A stretch of 64,000 nt of DNA, taken from the NCBI RefSeq assembly GCF_013315695.1, contig NZ_CP054353.1, one strand, 5' to 3'. This DNA comes from Escherichia coli. Its GTDB lineage: Bacteria; Pseudomonadota; Gammaproteobacteria; Enterobacterales; Enterobacteriaceae. Shown here piece by piece: positions 3,447-42,941 of the stretch (position 1 is the stretch's first letter; each line of letters begins with the position of its first letter). The notes beneath the pieces are model-generated. The model was given only the letters and a program-made list of their open reading frames with translations. It was not told the DNA's origin and did not search any database. A program made the position numbers and the translations under genes.

Positions 3447-5165
3447 TTACCTTAGCCAGTTCGTTTTCGCCAGTTCGATCACTTCATCACCGCGTCCGCT
3501 GATGATTGCGCGCAACATATACAAGCTGAAACCTTTGGCCTGTTCGAGTTTGATCTGCGGTGGAATGGCTAATTCTTCTTTGGCTACTACCACATCCACC
3601 AACACCGGACCGTCGATGGAAAAGGCGCGTTGCAGGGCTTCATCGACTTCAGAGGCTTTTTCCACGCGAATACCCGTAATTCCGCACGCTTCGGCAATGC
3701 GGGCAAAGTTGGTGTCGTGCAGCTCAGTACCGTCTGTCAGGTAGCCTCCGGCTTTCATCTCCATCGCCACAAAGCCCAGCACGCTGTTATTAAAGACGAT
3801 AATTTTCACTGGCAATTTCATCTGCATTACTGAGAGGAAATCGCCCATCAACATACTGAAACCGCCATCGCCGCACATGGCGACCACCTGACGTTCCGGC
3901 TCGGTTGCCTGCGCACCCAGCGCCTGCGGCATGGCGTTAGCCATCGAACCGTGGTTAAACGAACCTAACAGACGACGCTTGCCGTTCATTTTCAGATAAC
4001 GTGCCGCCCACACCGTTGGCGTACCAACGTCACAGGTAAAGATGGCGTCATCGGCGGCAAAATGACTAATTTGCTGCGCCAGATATTGCGGGTGAATGGC
4101 TTTCTCGCTCGGTTTAGCTAAATCATCCAGCCCTTTGCGGGCGTCGCGGTAATCTTCCAGCGCTTTATCCAGAAACTTGCGATCGGTTTTTTCTTCCACC
4201 AGTGGCAGCAATGCCCGCAGGGTTGATTTGATATCGCCGACCAGTGCCATATCTACCTTGCTATGCGCGCCGATGCTGGCTGGGTTGATATCAATCTGAA
4301 TAATTTTGGCATCGGTCGGGTAGAACGCGCGGTAGGGAAATTGCGTGCCGAGCAGCACTAACGTATCGGCATTCATCATGGTATGGAAACCTGACGAGAA
4401 GCCGATTAATCCCGTCATTCCGACATCATACGGATTATCGTATTCGACATGCTCTTTACCGCGCAGGGCATGAACAATAGGCGCTTTAATTTTCCCGGCA
4501 AACTCAACTAACTCTTTATGCGCCCCCGCGCAGCCGCTGCCACACATCAGGGCGATATTGCTGGAATAACGCAGCAGTTGCGCCAGTTTGCGTAACTCTT
4601 CTTCTTCCGGCGTCACGACTGGTTGTGGCGCATTATACCAGTGGGTAGTTGCCCCTTCTGGTGCAGGTTTTAACGCCACGTCGCCCGGTAACACGACAAC
4701 GGAAACGCCACGGTTTAGCACTGCTTTGCGCATAGCAATTGCCAGCACTTGTGGGATCTGCTCTGGGCTGGAAACCAGCTCGCAATAGTGACTACATTCG
4801 CGGAATAGCTCTTGTGGGTGGGTTTCCTGGAAATAGCCGCTGCCAATTTCGCTGGAGGGAATATGAGCGGCAATCGCCAGTACCGGAACGTGATTGCGGT
4901 GGCAATCGAACAGGCCGTTGATTAAGTGCAGGTTGCCGGGGCCGCACGATCCGGCACAGACCGCCAGTTCTCCGCTAAGTTGTGCTTCAGCGCCAGCGGC
5001 AAACGCCGCCACTTCTTCATGCCGGGTGGACATCCACTCGATGGTGCCCATGCGATTAAGACTGTCACTAAGACCGTTCAGAGAGTCGCCCGTGACTCCC
5101 CAGATGCGTTTCACTCCTGCCGATTCGAGTGTTTTGGCGATATAAGCTGCAACCGTTTGTTTCAT
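3447..5165 (-). CDS. poxB: pyruvate oxidase (ubiquinone-dependent pyruvate dehydrogenase), TPP/FAD enzyme
   Basis: 572-aa [34 protein letters not shown]..., TPP-binding GDGG motif. Confidence 0.9.
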
Positions 5166-14852: not shown

Positions 14853-15025
14853 AAAGTTCTTTTGCGCTGCATTGCTGGCGTAAATGTCAGCAATGCAGCA
14901 TTTCCTCACGATTCTTCTTTGACGATCGCACTTTTTGCTCGTTATGATGGCGTCGCTAGCCTCAGTAAATCCTTACTCCGGCGGTGCGCAACCCGTGCGC
15001 GTGAACCACTATCTGAATGCTCATC

Positions 15026-30160: not shown

Positions 30161-31078
30161 TTAAGTTGTTGGATTTTGGCTTTTATCTTCTTTGTAAGAA
30201 AGAAGGTCACACATCAAATTAACTACCTTGCTGAATTGGAAAAGGTCAGCGCCAGTCTGATGACGCCACTGGAATGCTTTATCATCTTCATCATTAAATG
30301 TCTGAGATTGAGTATTGATGCGCGAAAAATGGAAATTTTCGGTAAGAATGAAGGTCACACCGCAACCGGATAACTCCATTTTATCAGCAGTGAAACTACT
30401 ACTAAGGCTATCGGCCAGTTCGCTTTGAATTGACTCATGCTCAGCTGAGTAGCGAATAATTTCCTTTTGATCTGCGTAGCGTGATAGCTGAATATAATTT
30501 CCGACAGTGAATCCTTCAAATGCATTGGCTGCACCATTGATGTAGTTATTCAGGCGTGTAGTCAGTCCATTCTTGATATCACTGATGTTGATTGTTTCTG
30601 TTTTCACTGAACCGACAACCTTAATCAGCATTGCGCATACCATACCGGCTATTATTTTATTGGTTGTGTTGATTACCAATAATTTCTCATCAGTGCTGTA
30701 CAATGCAAGAATCAGAGTAGACTTAACAAATGCCTGTTTGCATAGATCTACTCGTACGTTATCAATAATGGCCAGTCGTTCGGCACGCTTTAATTTATTC
30801 CCGGACATATTTTCGGTTGTTTGGATTCGAGAATTAGCTTCTTTCATGACGACATGTCGGGGAATTATTTTCTGATCATGACGGATTACCATTGCGTACC
30901 CACCAGATATCGGAGTTACCAGTTCACCAGTGACAGGATTCTCTACAAAAGAGGACCGTGAAAATTCTGTTTCCCCGATTTCAGAATAAGGGAGTTCGAG
31001 AAGATGACCTTCAATAGCCTGTATACTAGGTAATGTTGCTCGGTACACAATTGCGTTACGAAATTTTGGTAATTTCAT
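30161..31078 (-). CDS. RdgC-like recombination-associated protein
   Basis: Long ORF 30161..31279; likely start MKLPKFRNAIVYRATLP at 31078 with a GAGGAAAA RBS; RdgC-like N-terminus; AT-rich. Confidence 0.5.
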   Translation of the reverse strand: MKLPKFRNAIVYRATLPSIQAIEGHLLELPYSEIGETEFSRSSFVENPVTGELVTPISGGYAMVIRHDQKIIPRHVVMKEANSRIQTTENMSGNKLKRAERLAIIDNVRVDLCKQAFVKSTLILALYSTDEKLLVINTTNKIIAGMVCAMLIKVVGSVKTETINISDIKNGLTTRLNNYINGAANAFEGFTVGNYIQLSRYADQKEIIRYSAEHESIQSELADSLSSSFTADKMELSGCGVTFILTENFHFSRINTQSQTFNDEDDKAFQWRHQTGADLFQFSKVVNLMCDLLSYKEDKSQNPTT

Positions 31079-31692
31079 TCTATTTTCCTCTGCACAATGT
31101 ATTAGTTTCTCCACAAAACAGAGAAGAACACCTGCGGTGGCAGCCGCCCGGATGGATTGGGTTATGAGCCCGTCGTCCGGTGATGCTCTTCTCTGTTTTG
31201 TAAAAAGAGCGGTACCAGCCGGAAGCAAGTGTACAAACTGGTACCGCCAAAGCAGTGGCTGTTGTGGTGGGGTTGTCACTCAGGCGTATGGTCAACCTGA
31301 CAACCCGGTGTCCTCAACGGGGAAAGAGTAACCCCGCCATACTTACCGCCGCGCCATTTCGCGGATTACCACAACGCTGAGAGCACTTAGCCAGTTACGG
31401 CACCACACTTTGTCGCGGTTCCATAAATGCCCTCATCGTTGCACCCTGGTCTCTTCCCAGGCGTCAAACCGAATCGCCACGCTGGTTAGGCGTCTTATCA
31501 GCATCCTCATTGACTTGCACATTCCGGCTATCTGGTTTGTTTGCCCGAGCAAGGAGTGGATTGTCCCCTTTAACGTCCCCAGACCGCTAACGACGCATGT
31601 GCCATACGCCGTGTTACAACCAAATTTTGTTAGTACCTTGTTTGTAGGTCTGGAGAGAAAGATAAAATGAAGTTGCGCATTATGCAAGTGTT

Positions 31693-31710
31693 TTATTGCG
31701 AGATAAGCAA
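31693..31710. promoter_or_regulatory. candidate OL operator
   Basis: ttattgcgagataagcaa is a near-copy of ttattgcgcgttaagcaa in the cI-cro intergenic region. Confidence 0.5.
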
Positions 31711-31719
31711 TTTGGTGGG

Positions 31720-31745
31720 TAATGAAAAGCCACCTTCTGGTGGCT
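31720..31745 (-). terminator. intrinsic terminator downstream of cI
   Basis: agccacc-ttct-ggtggct hairpin followed (minus strand) by a U-rich tract, about 25 bp past the cI stop. Confidence 0.55.
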
Positions 31746-31766
31746 AATTGATGTTGAGGTAGGGGG

Positions 31767-32459
31767 TTAATTGTGTCGCTTAAGGGTCTGTGACTGACTG
31801 ATTAAGACCTTTCCAAAGACCATAAACCGGTGTTCGTTTTCGCTGGTAATTCCCCATTCGCGGTAAATCTGATTATCAGAAATTACCAGCAGTTTATCAG
31901 GTATCATTTGCAGTCGTTTGACGTAAATTTTATCATCAAAACCAAATACATATATACCATCCCCATCAAACTGATTGATACTGATATCAACGAAGATGAG
32001 ATCTCCTGGCTCAATGGTTGGACACATACTGTCCCCACGAACGTTGATAACTTTAATGTGATTTGCTGGTCGTCCACCAAACATCGATACAGCATTATCA
32101 GTTCTGTATTCAATGGCATGAATCACATCAATGACATCACCGCCCTGGATAAGGCCATTTCCCGCACTGGCACTGACATCCAGCATTTCAATACGGAATA
32201 CATCCTTCACCTGCGTAACATCCTCACTAATACTGTTTTTACATACAGTATTACTTTTGAGGTCTGAGGTAAAGAGATCAGCAATATCAACACCTAAGCT
32301 CCTGGCAATATTACTCAGGGCTTGTTCAGTGAATTGTTTCTGCTTACCTGTTTCGAGGCGCGAGATATTCGCCGCATCCACTCCTATTGCTTCAGCGAGA
32401 TCGGCGATTTTCATGTTCTTCGCCTGGCGAAGTTGTCTGACTCGATTTCCTATGTTCAT
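31767..32459 (-). CDS. cI: CI-like phage repressor (HTH plus S24 LexA-like peptidase domain)
   Basis: 230-aa ORF with N-terminal HTH (IADLAEAIGVDAANISRLETGK) and C-terminal S24 motifs (GDSMCPTI ... KRL); divergent from cro. Confidence 0.85.
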   Translation of the reverse strand: MNIGNRVRQLRQAKNMKIADLAEAIGVDAANISRLETGKQKQFTEQALSNIARSLGVDIADLFTSDLKSNTVCKNSISEDVTQVKDVFRIEMLDVSASAGNGLIQGGDVIDVIHAIEYRTDNAVSMFGGRPANHIKVINVRGDSMCPTIEPGDLIFVDISINQFDGDGIYVFGFDDKIYVKRLQMIPDKLLVISDNQIYREWGITSENEHRFMVFGKVLISQSQTLKRHN

Positions 32460-32817: not shown

Positions 32818-33367
32818 GCATCATTGGAAAGTGGAAAAACAGCCTGAGTGGTACGTGAAAGCTGTCAGAAAAACTATCGCGGCGTTGCCGGGGGGTTACG
32901 CTGAAGCTGCTGAGTGGCTGGATGTAACAGAGAACGCATTATTCAACCGCCTTCGTGCAGATGGCGATCAGATTTTCCCGCTGGGATGGGCAATGGTTTT
33001 ACAGCGTGCGGCTGGCACTCACTACATTGCGGATGCTGTCGCACAGTCTGCTGGTGGGGTGTTCGTATCGCTTCCTGAAATTGAGGCAGTAGAGAACGCC
33101 GATATAAACCAGCGCCTGCTGGAAGTCATTGAACAGATCGGCAGTTATTCCAGACAGATTCGTTCAGCAATCGAAGACGGTGTAGTGGAACCGCATGAGA
33201 AGACAGCAATTAACGACGAACTGTATCTTTCAATTTCGAAGCTCCAGGAGCATGCAGCACTGGTCTACAAAATCTTCTGCGCTCCAGAAAAGAGTAACGC
33301 CCGCGAGTGTGCAGCTCCGGGCGTCGTGGCGTCGATTGCTTCTGGTTGTGGAGAAACTAACGCATGA
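32810..33367 (+). CDS. hypothetical regulator in the cII position (possibly YmfL-like)
   Basis: 185-aa ORF overlapping the cro stop and the next start. Confidence 0.4.
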   Translation: MGKHHWKVEKQPEWYVKAVRKTIAALPGGYAEAAEWLDVTENALFNRLRADGDQIFPLGWAMVLQRAAGTHYIADAVAQSAGGVFVSLPEIEAVENADINQRLLEVIEQIGSYSRQIRSAIEDGVVEPHEKTAINDELYLSISKLQEHAALVYKIFCAPEKSNARECAAPGVVASIASGCGETNA

Positions 33368-34509
33368 ATAGTTTAACGGCAAATAACCGTTTGTCGCAAC
33401 AGCTGGTGGTCAGCGTCGCTGAACACCTGTTGTTACGGCATGAATGCAGATTACCAAATCACCTGGCTGTAAGTAACCACAGAGAACTTTACCTGACTGT
33501 GGGGGGCGAGTTGTGCAGGAACTTAACCGCTGGTTTCGTGACGGAAGAGGGCTTTATGTCCATGTTATTCGTTGGGAGCCAGAAACACAGCGCGTTATCT
33601 ATCTTCGCAAAGACTACCCGCATGAGTGCTTTAGTCCTTTGTGGAAATTCAGGCGTGATTTTGTTGAGTGTGAAGGACCACCAGCATATTGATTCTGCAA
33701 TTCCGGGACGTTACACTGTTCAGGCACCTTATAAAGCGGGTGCCGGGATTGGCGTCCTGAAATTCGCACATGCGCATAACCGCGCTTCAGCGGTTTTTTT
33801 GCGCACGTTTCCTCACATCCAAATTATGGTGGGGCGTGCAGGGGCATCGAAAGATGCGCCGGGGTCATGTGCGACCGGTTACGCCAACCCTGTACGTCTC
33901 ACCACCTCTGTGATTGGCGTCCCATGTGGTGAGTTTTCAAAATTCGCACATGAGGATGTCACTATGGCAACCACCCCTACCCAAACTCACCCTAAAATTG
34001 ATGTTATCCATGGGAAGGCTGTTACCTCTTCTTTGGCCGTTGCCGAATATTTCTGCAAGCAGCACAAAAACGTTATTCAAAAAATCCAGACGCTTGAGTG
34101 CTCTGTTGAATTCACTGAGCTGAATTTTCAGCCCAGTGATTACACCGATTGCACAGGCCGCAAACTCCCTTGTTACCAAATCACCCGCGACGGTTTTGCG
34201 TTTCTTGCCATGGGCTTCACGGGGAAACGTGCTGCCCGGTTCAAAGAGGCATACATCAATGCCTTTAACCAGATGGAGAAACAGCTTTCAAATCCCTCTG
34301 TACTGAGCGACGTTGCACATAACGCCAGCGTTCTCTATTCCTACATTTCATCAATTCATCAGGTCTGGCTGCAGCAGCTTTATCCTATGTTGGCAAAAGC
34401 CGAATCTCCGCTGGCTGTTAGCTTGTATGACTATATTAATGATGCTTCGGCGCTGGCCTGCCTCATAAATTTGTCGCTGAATCCTTCAGAGGTAAGGGGG
34501 CGTAAATGA
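33364..34509 (+). CDS. Rha-family phage regulatory protein, copy 1 (variable N-terminal region plus Rha domain)
   Basis: C-terminal ITRDGFAFLAMGFTGKRAARFKEAYINAFNQME matches the Rha-domain signature as I recall it; possible internal start near 33965 (MATTPTQ...). Confidence 0.65.
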   Translation: MNSLTANNRLSQQLVVSVAEHLLLRHECRLPNHLAVSNHRELYLTVGGELCRNLTAGFVTEEGFMSMLFVGSQKHSALSIFAKTTRMSALVLCGNSGVILLSVKDHQHIDSAIPGRYTVQAPYKAGAGIGVLKFAHAHNRASAVFLRTFPHIQIMVGRAGASKDAPGSCATGYANPVRLTTSVIGVPCGEFSKFAHEDVTMATTPTQTHPKIDVIHGKAVTSSLAVAEYFCKQHKNVIQKIQTLECSVEFTELNFQPSDYTDCTGRKLPCYQITRDGFAFLAMGFTGKRAARFKEAYINAFNQMEKQLSNPSVLSDVAHNASVLYSYISSIHQVWLQQLYPMLAKAESPLAVSLYDYINDASALACLINLSLNPSEVRGRK

Positions 34510-35387
34510 TCCGGAATATTTTCAAACTGTTTACCAATCGCCACCAGCATATTGATTCTGCAATTCCGGGACGTTACACTGTTCAGGCACCTTATAAAGC
34601 GGGTGCCGGGATTGGCGTCCTGAAATTGTCAACGGCGATGTATGACGCGCCAGCGTCTTTTTTATCGTCCGCATTTGCTCACATCCAGATTATGGTGGGC
34701 TGGGCGGGGGCACCGAAAGGTGCGCCGGTCTCCGTTGACGCCGGTTACGCCAACCCCGTCCAGTTCACCACCAGTGAAATTGGCGTTTCCGGTGGTGGAA
34801 GTTTTTCACTGTCAACGGAGGCTGCCATCATGGCTACGATCCCAGCCCTCACTCAACCTGAAATCACCATTGACAACGGCCAGGCCGTTACCACTTCTTT
34901 GGCTGTTGCCAACTTCTTCTCCAAGCGTCACGACGATGTGCTGAAAAAGATCCGCACTCTGGATTGTTCCCCTGAGTTTTGTGCCCGCAATTTTGCGGAG
35001 ACATCGATTTCGGTAAATCAACCGAACGGTGGTACACGCAAGCTCCTTTGCTATCAAATCACACGAGACGGTTTTGCGTTTCTTGCTATGGGTTTCACGG
35101 GTAAACGTGCTGCCCGGTTCAAAGAGGCATACATCAATGCCTTTAACCAGATGGAAAAACTGCTTTCAAAGCCATCCACGCTGAGCGATGCCGCAGATAA
35201 CGCCAGCGTGCTTTACTCCCACCTGTCGGTAATCCACAAGGTCTGGCTGCAGCAGCTTTATCCCATGTTGGCAAAAGCCGAATCCCCGCTGGCTGTAAGT
35301 CTGTATGACCGCATCAACGACGCGGCGCTACTGGCCAGTCTCATAAATTTGTCGCTGAACCCTTCAGAGGTAAGGGGGCGTAAATGA
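34506..35387 (+). CDS. Rha-family phage regulatory protein, copy 2 (tandem paralogue)
   Basis: 293-aa ORF; same Rha C-terminal motif; N-terminus MIRNIFKLFTNRHQHIDSAIPGRY repeats a segment inside copy 1. Confidence 0.65.
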   Translation: MIRNIFKLFTNRHQHIDSAIPGRYTVQAPYKAGAGIGVLKLSTAMYDAPASFLSSAFAHIQIMVGWAGAPKGAPVSVDAGYANPVQFTTSEIGVSGGGSFSLSTEAAIMATIPALTQPEITIDNGQAVTTSLAVANFFSKRHDDVLKKIRTLDCSPEFCARNFAETSISVNQPNGGTRKLLCYQITRDGFAFLAMGFTGKRAARFKEAYINAFNQMEKLLSKPSTLSDAADNASVLYSHLSVIHKVWLQQLYPMLAKAESPLAVSLYDRINDAALLASLINLSLNPSEVRGRK

Positions 35388-42691: not shown

Positions 42692-42767
42692 GGCCCTTTA
42701 GCTCAGTGGTGAGAGCGAGCGATTCATAATCGCCAGGTCGCTGGTTCAAATCCAGCAAGGGCCACCA
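42692..42767 (+). tRNA. tRNA with CAU anticodon (Ile2/Met-type; ileZ-like)
   Basis: Cloverleaf GGCCCTT-TA-GCTCAGTGGTGAGAGC..anticodon loop TTCATAA..GGTTCAAATCC..AAGGGCC-A-CCA. Confidence 0.85.
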
Positions 42768-42774
42768 TCACATA

Positions 42775-42851
42775 CCGCCATTAGCTCATCAGGATAGAGC
42801 GCCAGCCTTCGAAGCTGGTTGCGCGGGGTTCGAGTCCTCGATGGCGGTCCA
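42775..42851 (+). tRNA. tRNA-Arg (anticodon UCG; argN-like)
   Basis: Acceptor CCGCCAT/ATGGCGG, anticodon loop CTTCGAA, T-loop GGTTCGAGTCC, encoded CCA. Confidence 0.8.
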
Positions 42852-42864
42852 TTATCTGTACCCT

Positions 42865-42941
42865 GCGTTATTAGCTCAGCCGGACAGAGCAATTGCCTTC
42901 TAAGCAATCGGTCACTGGTTCGAATCCAGTACAACGCGCCA
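42865..42941 (+). tRNA. tRNA-Arg (anticodon UCU; argO/argU-like)
   Basis: GCGTTATTAGCTCAGCCGGACAGAGC..anticodon loop CTTCTAA..GGTTCGAATCC..CGCCA, close to host argU. Confidence 0.8.

Follow-up and report, generated by a model that had tools for sequence, protein, structure and literature searches.

Between the gene of an S24-type CI-like repressor and an rdgC-like gene, the 64,000-nt stretch of Escherichia coli contig NZ_CP054353.1 analysed here (the window) contains a gene-free interval on the minus strand at positions 31079-31690. This interval is not a single leader but consists of four independently conserved RNA cassettes, which in the direction of transcription from the early-left promoter PL are module C, a first long stem (LS1), module B with a terminator, and a second long stem (LS2, identical to module A). 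A preliminary description of the sequence had proposed one leader with separate hairpins; the hairpins are there, whereas the single leader has to be replaced by the four shuffled cassettes. The interval is non-coding and acts at the RNA level, which is supported by compensatory changes in each module on the PL-transcribed strand. We consider the chances about even that it represents the untranslated 5' part of a repressor-controlled PL transcript and would function as a polycistronic non-coding precursor like that of dicBF.

Coding potential and mosaic structure of the interval

With a GC content of 0.53-0.565 over positions 31100-31600 the interval is, as had been stated before, richer in GC than its flanks (0.38-0.44 in rdgC and 0.37-0.45 in cI). 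The 577-nt leader RNA folds with -223 kcal/mol, compared to a mean of -189 +/- 6.4 for shuffled sequences (z = -5.3), and none of 100 shuffles was as good. The longest minus-strand open reading frames (ORFs) begin with TTG and comprise 84 aa (31433-31687) and 71 aa (31080-31295). Six-frame stop counts revealed no frame that stays open across the sets of 21 and 15 diverged homologues, and the lengths of the homologues spread over all three classes modulo 3. By the stop codons in six frames and the length classes across the family a coding reading was rejected, and the earlier impression that there is no credible minus-strand ORF proved right. Many G-U pairs within the modules fit the PL-transcribed strand only.

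BLAST searches against phages and a set of 5,426 complete E. coli genomes gave separate distributions for the segments 31102-31269, 31269-31375 and 31376-31631. Within the 64-kb window nhmmer found one copy of module C and one of module B, both on the PL strand.

A check against Rfam, which the preliminary description had suggested, assigned no family to any of the modules. In Rfam 15 nothing was found at the gathering thresholds over modules C, B or A when the whole window was searched, and at E <= 10 the region 30900-31900 gave just two chance-level matches. Likewise, modules C, B and A had no match at E <= 0.1 in the P1, phiV10-type, GZ7 and Qin loci. ARAGORN called no tRNA in the part of the window around the leader, and the Rfam tRNA model matched the window at 42692-42938 only and not in the leader. 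The literature and the record annotations which we examined contain no description of module C, the module B fold or the long stems, and in the main text of a catalogue paper on candidate structured RNAs of viruses DicF, lambdoid phages and antitermination are absent.

Module B and the unit at the DicF position

Module B (31261-31375, minus strand) is a cloverleaf-like RNA with four helices, delimited by its homology to the prophage Qin and to phage P1 and by a structure test. It is closed by helix P1 (31375-31368 with 31268-31261, GUUGUGGU:ACCACAAC); this stem (GTTGTGGT / ACCACAAC at 31261-31268 / 31368-31375) is a fourth one which had been missed earlier. P2 (31364-31349), P3 (31335-31319) and P4 (31306-31298 with 31278-31270) follow, the last being the perfect 9-bp stem GGGTTGTCA / TGACAACCC (31270-31278 / 31298-31306) already seen in the preliminary description. 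In addition, GUAUGG (31342-31337) can form a pseudoknot with CCAUAC (31291-31286). In an alignment of 15 diverged sequences 95.2% of the cells are paired, a value reached by none of 500 shuffles, while slid controls gave 34-58% pairing. Compensatory changes were found at nine pairs including the pseudoknot, which in phage P1 reads GCAUGG:CCAUGC.

The module B profile matches the window with E = 9.8e-40, Qin with 6.7e-40 and P1 with 7.7e-27. Positions 31269-31375 have a match in 4,741 of the 5,426 complete E. coli genomes, and the match in Qin lies between ydfC and dicB. In megablast module B shows 94% identity with the stretch that directly precedes DicF in Qin, where the DicF match of Rfam lies right behind this segment. 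When viral contigs were scanned with a module B motif, 103 distinct loci came up, a part of them by chance. In the true members a long-stem 3' strand (GUGCGCUUCCGGUUGUGG) comes before the module, and a variable single strand with a GGCGG...CCGCC-UUUUU terminator usually after it.

In the window this following unit (31202-31260, minus strand, defined by alignment to DicF) consists of the single strand AGCCACUGCUUU, the terminator hairpin GGCGGUACCAG-N-CUGGUACCGC and UCUUUUU. By its position it corresponds to DicF, as it lies directly 3' of the conserved upstream element and ends in a Rho-independent terminator. The hairpin (31248-31202) has -22 kcal/mol and contains the perfect 10-bp stem GCGGTACCAG / CTGGTACCGC (31209-31218 / 31238-31247) of the preliminary description, where the stem itself was correctly noted and its nature as an intrinsic terminator with a U-run was overlooked. 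In a pairwise alignment with Qin, near-identity over about 107 nt is followed by a 19-nt deletion which removes the DicF seed AUCAAUUUUCUGGUGACG. The base-pairing 5' seed of DicF, UUUCUGGUGAC, is thus absent from the window unit, and its hairpin shares with DicF only the first 17 nt (UUUGGCGGUA.CAGUUU) and the CCGC.CUUUUUA tail. Because the seed is missing and the hairpin body differs, the Rfam DicF model (RF00039, gathering threshold 48 bits) does not match 30900-31900 at E <= 10, while it scores 76.7 bits in Qin. DicF binds Hfq and represses ftsZ, xylR, pykA and manX; in RNAduplex predictions against the ftsZ leader neither the authentic DicF nor the window variant could be separated from shuffled sequences.

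DicF is one of at least eight variants of terminator units behind module B; the window type is present in 32 viral loci, and two variants continue directly into an ORF. In four loci (L147, L223, L359 of ST64B and L360 of Kp4866-6) the hairpin at the DicF position has a large loop with a strong Shine-Dalgarno sequence and a start codon. The tiny ORF of these variants, for example AUG UUC UAC CGC GGU ACC GCC CUU UUU, crosses the 3' arm of the terminator, and this layout suggests either a translation-controlled termination or a small toxic peptide. A pairing of the Qin DicF seed with the sequence behind the terminator, considered as an explanation of the RNase III-dependent 72-nt species, was rejected, since folding of Qin 3996-3896 gave no such stem. 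An RNase III-dependent DicF precursor of about 190 nt, counted from the DicF 3' end, would put the cleavage near position 4114 of the Qin locus (L001), within its long stem.

Module C

Module C (31445-31624, minus strand; nhmmer match 31613-31440, E = 1.8e-35) is a pseudoknotted RNA of about 170 nt and the most conserved part of the interval. It is built from a P1 hairpin (CGGCGU/GCGUCG) with the conserved loop AUGGCACAU, a long-range helix (GCGGUCUGG/CCAG..GCCG), an H-type pseudoknot between the loop UAACC and GGUUUGA, and the hairpin CCUGG-GAAGAGA-CCAGG. Among its invariant single-stranded segments are AUGGCACAU, GGAAUGUGCAAG and GAAGAGA, and these segments indicate a specific partner. The window and P1 also have the 5' extension UUUGGUUGUAAC in common.

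The structure model was obtained with RNAalifold from 21 diverged representatives, the pseudoknot being added manually. It has 31 pairs in seven helices, and 98.3% of the cells are paired, compared to 29-44% in slid controls. Double changes were found at 11 pairs and in 52 cells, and on every measure none of 500 shuffles was as good. Because G-U pairs are frequent in module C, the functional strand is the PL strand. Together with the compensatory changes in module B and in the long stems, the covariance check across homologues proposed in the preliminary description thus turned out in favour of conserved structures.

Homologues with 78-83% identity occur in P1, P7 and hundreds of P1-like plasmids, in phiV10, TL-2011b and SPN1S (epsilon15-like), in SJ46, in Enterobacter and Klebsiella phages, and among the lambdoid phages in mEp460, cdtI and Stx2c-type phages. 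In phiV10-type phages the module abuts a tRNA-Arg gene. It is present in 1,830 of the complete E. coli genomes (34%), and none of the 12 E. coli records listed has an annotated feature over it. Viral contigs scanned for a motif of module C yielded 120 loci, and their cores comprise 105 distinct sequences. We also searched 298 Gb of genome contigs with the 15-mer GCCGGAATGTGCAAG; most of the 120 rows are chance matches because the 15-mer is too short for a set of this size, and profile filtering kept eight module C loci. Six of these are from Citrobacter, Pseudescherichia, Pseudocitrobacter and Superficieibacter, one is on a 1.7-kb contig binned as Bacillota, and for one the source is unchecked.

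At many loci module C is found in the same orientation just downstream of S24-type cI repressor genes, which belong to at least five sequence types. Of 82 distinct loci, 65 have a terminator-like hairpin on the same strand not more than 1.2 kb downstream, often two to four in series; in total, 124 such hairpins near module C loci lie on the same strand versus 49 on the opposite strand.

The long stems and a copy of the initiator-tRNA loop

The third kind of cassette is a long stem of the general form CAAC-N-..AAGAGC../..GCUCUU..-N-GUUGUGG, the tip of which is extremely variable and measures 10-140 nt. Altogether 54 sequence types fold in this way, and an alignment of 23 types with the tips replaced by GAAA predicts 17 pairs, 12 of them with compensatory changes. 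LS1 (31369-31441, minus strand, defined by folding and alignment) has the strands CAACGAUGAGGGCAUU...AAGUGCUCUCAGCGUUG(UGG), a small variable tip and about 17-19 bp with an A-G mismatch. LS2 (31111-31201, minus strand) is a 24-25-bp stem (ACAAAACAGAGAAGAGCAUCACC.../...GGUGUUCUUCUCUGUUUUGUGG) with an energy of -49.7 kcal/mol (z = -8.3). It aligns with the family and is located right before the ribosome-binding site of rdgC and thus the first mRNA. Its 25-nt arms (31113-31137 / 31177-31201) are 84% complementary, and the perfect 15-bp long-range stem 31113-31127/31187-31201 that had been reported earlier is their core.

About 160-175 nt past the module C motif, right after the GUUGUG at the end of a long stem, we found tRNA-Arg, an STnc100-like RNA or module B. 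In mEp460-type leaders the unit replacing module B behind the long stem has the STnc100-like start GUGGUGAAUGCGG. Sub-threshold matches to STnc100 were also seen directly after DicF in Qin (34.4 bits; L001 3717-3926, minus strand) and in the P1 ban operon (33.4 bits; L004 1571-1690), and STnc100-like units therefore appear to be part of the same repertoire of cassettes.

The tip of LS2 is a three-way element which includes GGGCUCAUAACCC (31171-31159, minus strand) and the hairpin GCGG-CUGCCA-CCGC. The tip sequence CGGGCUCAUAACCC is identical to the anticodon stem-loop of the E. coli initiator tRNA-fMet (metZ), including the three G-C pairs. The 13-mer at 31171-31159 occurs once in the window, with 0.03 occurrences expected. 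In Salmonella, Klebsiella, Citrobacter and Pantoea phages the loop CUCAUAA or CUCAUUA is kept while the flanks diverge, and in total the element was found in phages of five enterobacterial genera (including L237 1520-1545 and L359-L362). In the Klebsiella phage GZ7 it follows tRNA-Arg and sits in a short stem ending in ACCA. The LS2 tip may be a functional mimic of tRNA-fMet or a tRNA relic.

A candidate polycistronic non-coding precursor

The putative operator and promoter region OL/PL (31659-31710, minus strand) was read from the sequence. Two operator copies of the TTGC-N7-GCAA type precede the array, TTGCTTATCTCGCAA (31710-31696) and TTGCATAATGCGCAA (31687-31673); the first corresponds to the copy placed at 31693-31710 in the preliminary description, and the second overlaps the likely -35 box. 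The putative -35 box TTGCAT (31687-31682) and -10 box TATCTT (31664-31659) are spaced by 17 nt, and transcription would start near 31652. As a consensus promoter scan did not flag PL, we infer the promoter from these boxes. The same type of operator and the TATCTT box are located directly 5' of module C in relatives such as L017, L087, L091, L092 and L095, and in relatives with related operators the -10 box sits about 10 nt before the module. Module C begins about 40 nt past the presumed start in the window and within a few nucleotides of it in the relatives.

After derepression RNA polymerase would start near 31652 and transcribe module C, LS1 and module B. A fraction of the transcripts may end at the terminator at the DicF position (31248-31202), yielding an RNA with a 3' end of hairpin and U-tail, the type bound by Hfq, while the remaining transcripts would continue past LS2 into rdgC and further early-left genes. 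LS1 and LS2 could serve as double-stranded cutting sites, most likely for RNase III. This role is proposed because of the stem length and because of the known processing of the dicBF transcript by RNase III; RNase III processing stems, as in T7 early RNA, the lambda N leader and dicBF, flank the released units with double-stranded RNA of about two turns. Cutting would set free module C (about 200 nt), module B with the terminator (about 170 nt) and the mRNA. Of the options named in the preliminary description, a site of processing and a stable non-coding transcript of PL fit the data best, and the middle part is homologous to the dicF region of dicBF.

Several points weigh against this precursor. 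Promoter, start site, partial termination, cleavage of the long stems and stability of the products are all predicted from the sequence, and the placement of published processing sites on the long stems rests on reviews. LS1 is at the lower limit for the E. coli RNase III. Since the window unit lacks the DicF seed and is not matched by the Rfam model, it may be only a terminator and not a regulatory small RNA (sRNA). Finally, the precursor leaves module C without a function, and the elaborate invariant core of this module suggests a specific activity beyond that of a processed by-product.

Alternative and additional functions

As a tentative extension, to which we give a rather low probability, module C could be a kind of phage RNA not described before whose biochemical activity is specific, in the first place as a factor-independent modifier of RNA polymerase unrelated to the put RNAs of phage HK022. 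N-less lambdoid phages, P1 and epsilon15-like phages could then transcribe past serial terminators in untranslated tRNA/sRNA arrays, and together with the long stems and the fMet-loop copy module C would form a shared system of non-coding RNA (ncRNA) cassettes in enterobacterial phages.

That module C is a cis-acting processive antiterminator, which binds the polymerase as part of the nascent PL RNA and replaces N by a put-like function while being unrelated to put, appears rather unlikely to us. The polymerase would then resist the DicF-type terminator, later terminators, and Rho on the long untranslated RNA. The absence of N speaks for this possibility: the first four early-left genes encode an RdgC-like protein, a 5'-deoxynucleotidase and two unknowns, none of them N-like, just as had been noted, and in related phages N is absent over the whole early-left operon. 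An intrinsic terminator (-22 kcal/mol plus U-run) separates PL from every early-left gene, and the serial terminators behind module C (65 of 82 loci; 124 versus 49 by strand) point in the same direction. Moreover, in relatives with related operators the module starts a few nucleotides past the presumed transcription start, as putL does (PMC9378689), and its invariant single-stranded core and pseudoknot would suit a specific macromolecular partner. On the other hand, there is no similarity to put, the architecture differs and a second copy after PR is missing. In P1 a distance of 2.3 kb separates Pban from module C, which lies past the terminator of module B and has no terminator between itself and ban. 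In addition, 17 of the 82 loci have no terminator downstream, and the DicF terminator is leaky without any such element (PMC5069750).

Less likely still, the modules are cargo in a tRNA slot, released as stable tRNA-like or decoy RNAs which act in trans on the host machinery; the fMet-loop copy of LS2, for example, could be bait for an anticodon nuclease, MetRS, IF3 or the 30S subunit. This agrees with the interchange of tRNA-Arg, STnc100-like RNA and module B after the GUUGUG of the long stems, with the cloverleaf-like four-helix fold of module B, with the T-arm-like GGTTCGAATCC carried by some long-stem tips, and with the anticodon stem-loop CGGGCUCAUAACCC of tRNA-fMet, which is kept across five genera and follows tRNA-Arg in GZ7. 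However, ARAGORN finds no tRNA in the leader, modules B and C have neither T-loop or D-loop signatures nor a CCA end, and no nuclease or other partner was identified. The anticodon-loop copy could also be a decaying tRNA fragment kept by recent common descent; covariation cannot speak to this, because the copy is invariant. Neither the antiterminator nor the tRNA-slot cargo conflicts with the precursor model; each would give it a further function.

Very improbable is an interval that is protein-coding or junk at mosaic recombination joints: although it is clearly mosaic, and GenBank records of mEp460, cdtI and PhiR phages have hypothetical proteins annotated there, most of them on the opposite strand, and one O157 copy is listed as a pseudogene with a frameshift, no frame is conserved, indels are not multiples of three, the helices in C, B and the long stems are maintained by compensatory changes with G-U pairs fitting the PL strand only, and P1, epsilon15-like and lambdoid phages have retained module C with 78-83% identity and unchanged loops. 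The opposite-strand ORFs gp36 and gp37 of mEp460 (L234 5036-5589) and orf40 of cdtI (L002 2775-3230) overlap with modules A and C in a C-rich antisense sequence, and the calls are probably spurious.

Flanking genes and other RNA elements in the window

Upstream of the array lies the minus-strand gene of the S24-type CI-like repressor (230 aa, 31767-32459), whose intrinsic terminator (AGCCACCAGAAGGTGGCT followed by TTTTCATT, 31728-31745, minus strand) was found by a terminator scan and in the sequence. Downstream, homology to other phages ends at query position 103, equivalent to window position 31102, just past LS2. This mosaic junction (~31102) is followed by the Shine-Dalgarno sequence GAGGA (31090-31086) and the ATG of rdgC (31078), together at 31076-31102 on the minus strand as seen by BLAST and in the sequence. 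The RdgC-family protein itself is encoded at 30161-31078 on the minus strand.

Rfam models identified further RNA elements. Two tandem pairs of isrK and C4 antisense RNA (33724-33909 and 34587-34775, plus strand) flank a Rha/Ant-like ORF (33364-34509) and look like an immI-type RNA immunity module as in P1/P7, here in the early-right operon of a lambdoid prophage. The call of this 381-aa ORF overlaps the first isrK/C4 pair, so that its true start is probably later. The segment 42692-43281 holds three tRNAs and, behind them, STnc100 (131.7 bits) and the antisense RNA AsxR; RNA islands of this make-up are typical of the late region of Stx-type phages. The plus strand also has a Peptidase-S11 RNA motif in full length (RF03039, 72.8 bits) at 14941-15021.

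Significance

The DicF locus is among the oldest known bacterial sRNA systems. The relationship to dicF and the 'dicF-like region' of P1 are already known. The fold of module B, DicF as a cartridge, the seedless variant, the module C family, the punctuation by long stems and the fMet-loop copy were not found in Rfam 15, in the annotations viewed or in the searchable literature. Our data suggest that DicF is an interchangeable cartridge of seed and terminator on a conserved pseudoknotted module B, which bears on how DicF and its variants are made.

Module C is unannotated in P1, in Stx-converting and SfV/mEp460-type phages and in about one third of the complete E. coli genomes, and it is usually the first thing transcribed once the repressor is lifted. 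There is a real chance that it is a new RNA class. Should it prove an antiterminator, the problem which HK022 solves with put would have been solved a second time and independently, and early-left expression in N-less lambdoid phages would be explained. The long stems and the fMet-loop copy offer handles on phage ncRNA islands which are now annotated as empty or as spurious hypothetical proteins.

Comparison with known systems

The preliminary description had pointed to the put RNAs of HK022 as a possible model; these RNAs suppress termination and pausing in cis without further factors, an effect that depends on the zinc-binding domain of beta'. Like putL/putR, the array in the window consists of structured RNA close to the promoter of an early operon, with terminators behind it, in a lambdoid phage that lacks N (PMC9378689). 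The putL sequence, however, is unrelated to the leader: blastn-short of the latter against the HK022 cI-PL-nun region gave only chance 9-13-mers, and the module C and B profiles have no match in HK022. Whereas a put RNA has about 70 nt with two stem-loops and a triplex (PMC9378689), module C, of about 170 nt, combines a long-range helix with an H-type pseudoknot, and nhmmer detected no second, putR-like copy after PR in the window. With no BLAST or profile similarity, a different architecture and a single copy, membership in the put family was rejected.

A likeness also exists to the tRNA/sRNA islands downstream of Q in phages (tRNA-Ile/Arg, STnc100, PasD, AsxR; for the late-region context of STnc100/PasD see bioRxiv 10.64898/2026.05.13.724894), which have the same long stem ending in GUUGUGG before tRNA-Arg and STnc100-like units. 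In Klebsiella and Pantoea phages an LS2-type element adjoins tRNA genes. These islands belong to the late region, while the window array is an early-left leader without a genuine tRNA.

In the leader of the P1 ban operon module B follows immediately after the C1-controlled Pban/Op72; it is annotated there as 'dicF-like region', and an intrinsic terminator comes next. Module C has the 5' extension UUUGGUUGUAAC as in the window; it lies between tRNA-Ile and ban and is not covered by the annotation, which comprises the module B part only. Both systems are repressor-controlled early transcripts that mix tRNAs and structured RNAs. The order differs from the window, as in P1 module B comes first and 2.3 kb of tRNAs and tci genes separate it from module C. 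Furthermore, module C of P1 is followed by the DicF-seed-like AUUUUCUGGUGAUGAC (L004 2686-2705) and then by ban, that of the window by LS1 and module B. The P1 sequence AUUUUCUGGUGAUGAC closely resembles the DicF 5' seed which is missing from the window unit.

The closest counterpart of the middle part is the dicF region of Qin in E. coli K-12 (ydfABC-dicF-dicB-ydfD, the dicBF operon). Unlike the window, Qin has no module C, carries an STnc100-like element in the place of LS2 and starts its array after three small ORFs, whereas that of the window starts right after the promoter; the window in turn lacks the 19 nt with the DicF 5' seed and has a different hairpin body. In the dicBF transcript, which has a long untranslated region, both termination at DicF and read-through occur, and RNase E and RNase III take part in its processing (PMC5069750; PMC9438474). 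Qin and the window have in common module B (about 94% identity over about 107 nt 5' of DicF), the same kind of long-stem 3' strand (GUGCGCUUCCGGUUGUGG) before it, and at the same distance a hairpin region which starts with UUUGGCGGUA.CAGUUU and ends with CCGC.CUUUUUA. In both cases these elements are part of a repressor-controlled early operon and are located upstream of protein genes which need read-through (PMC5069750).

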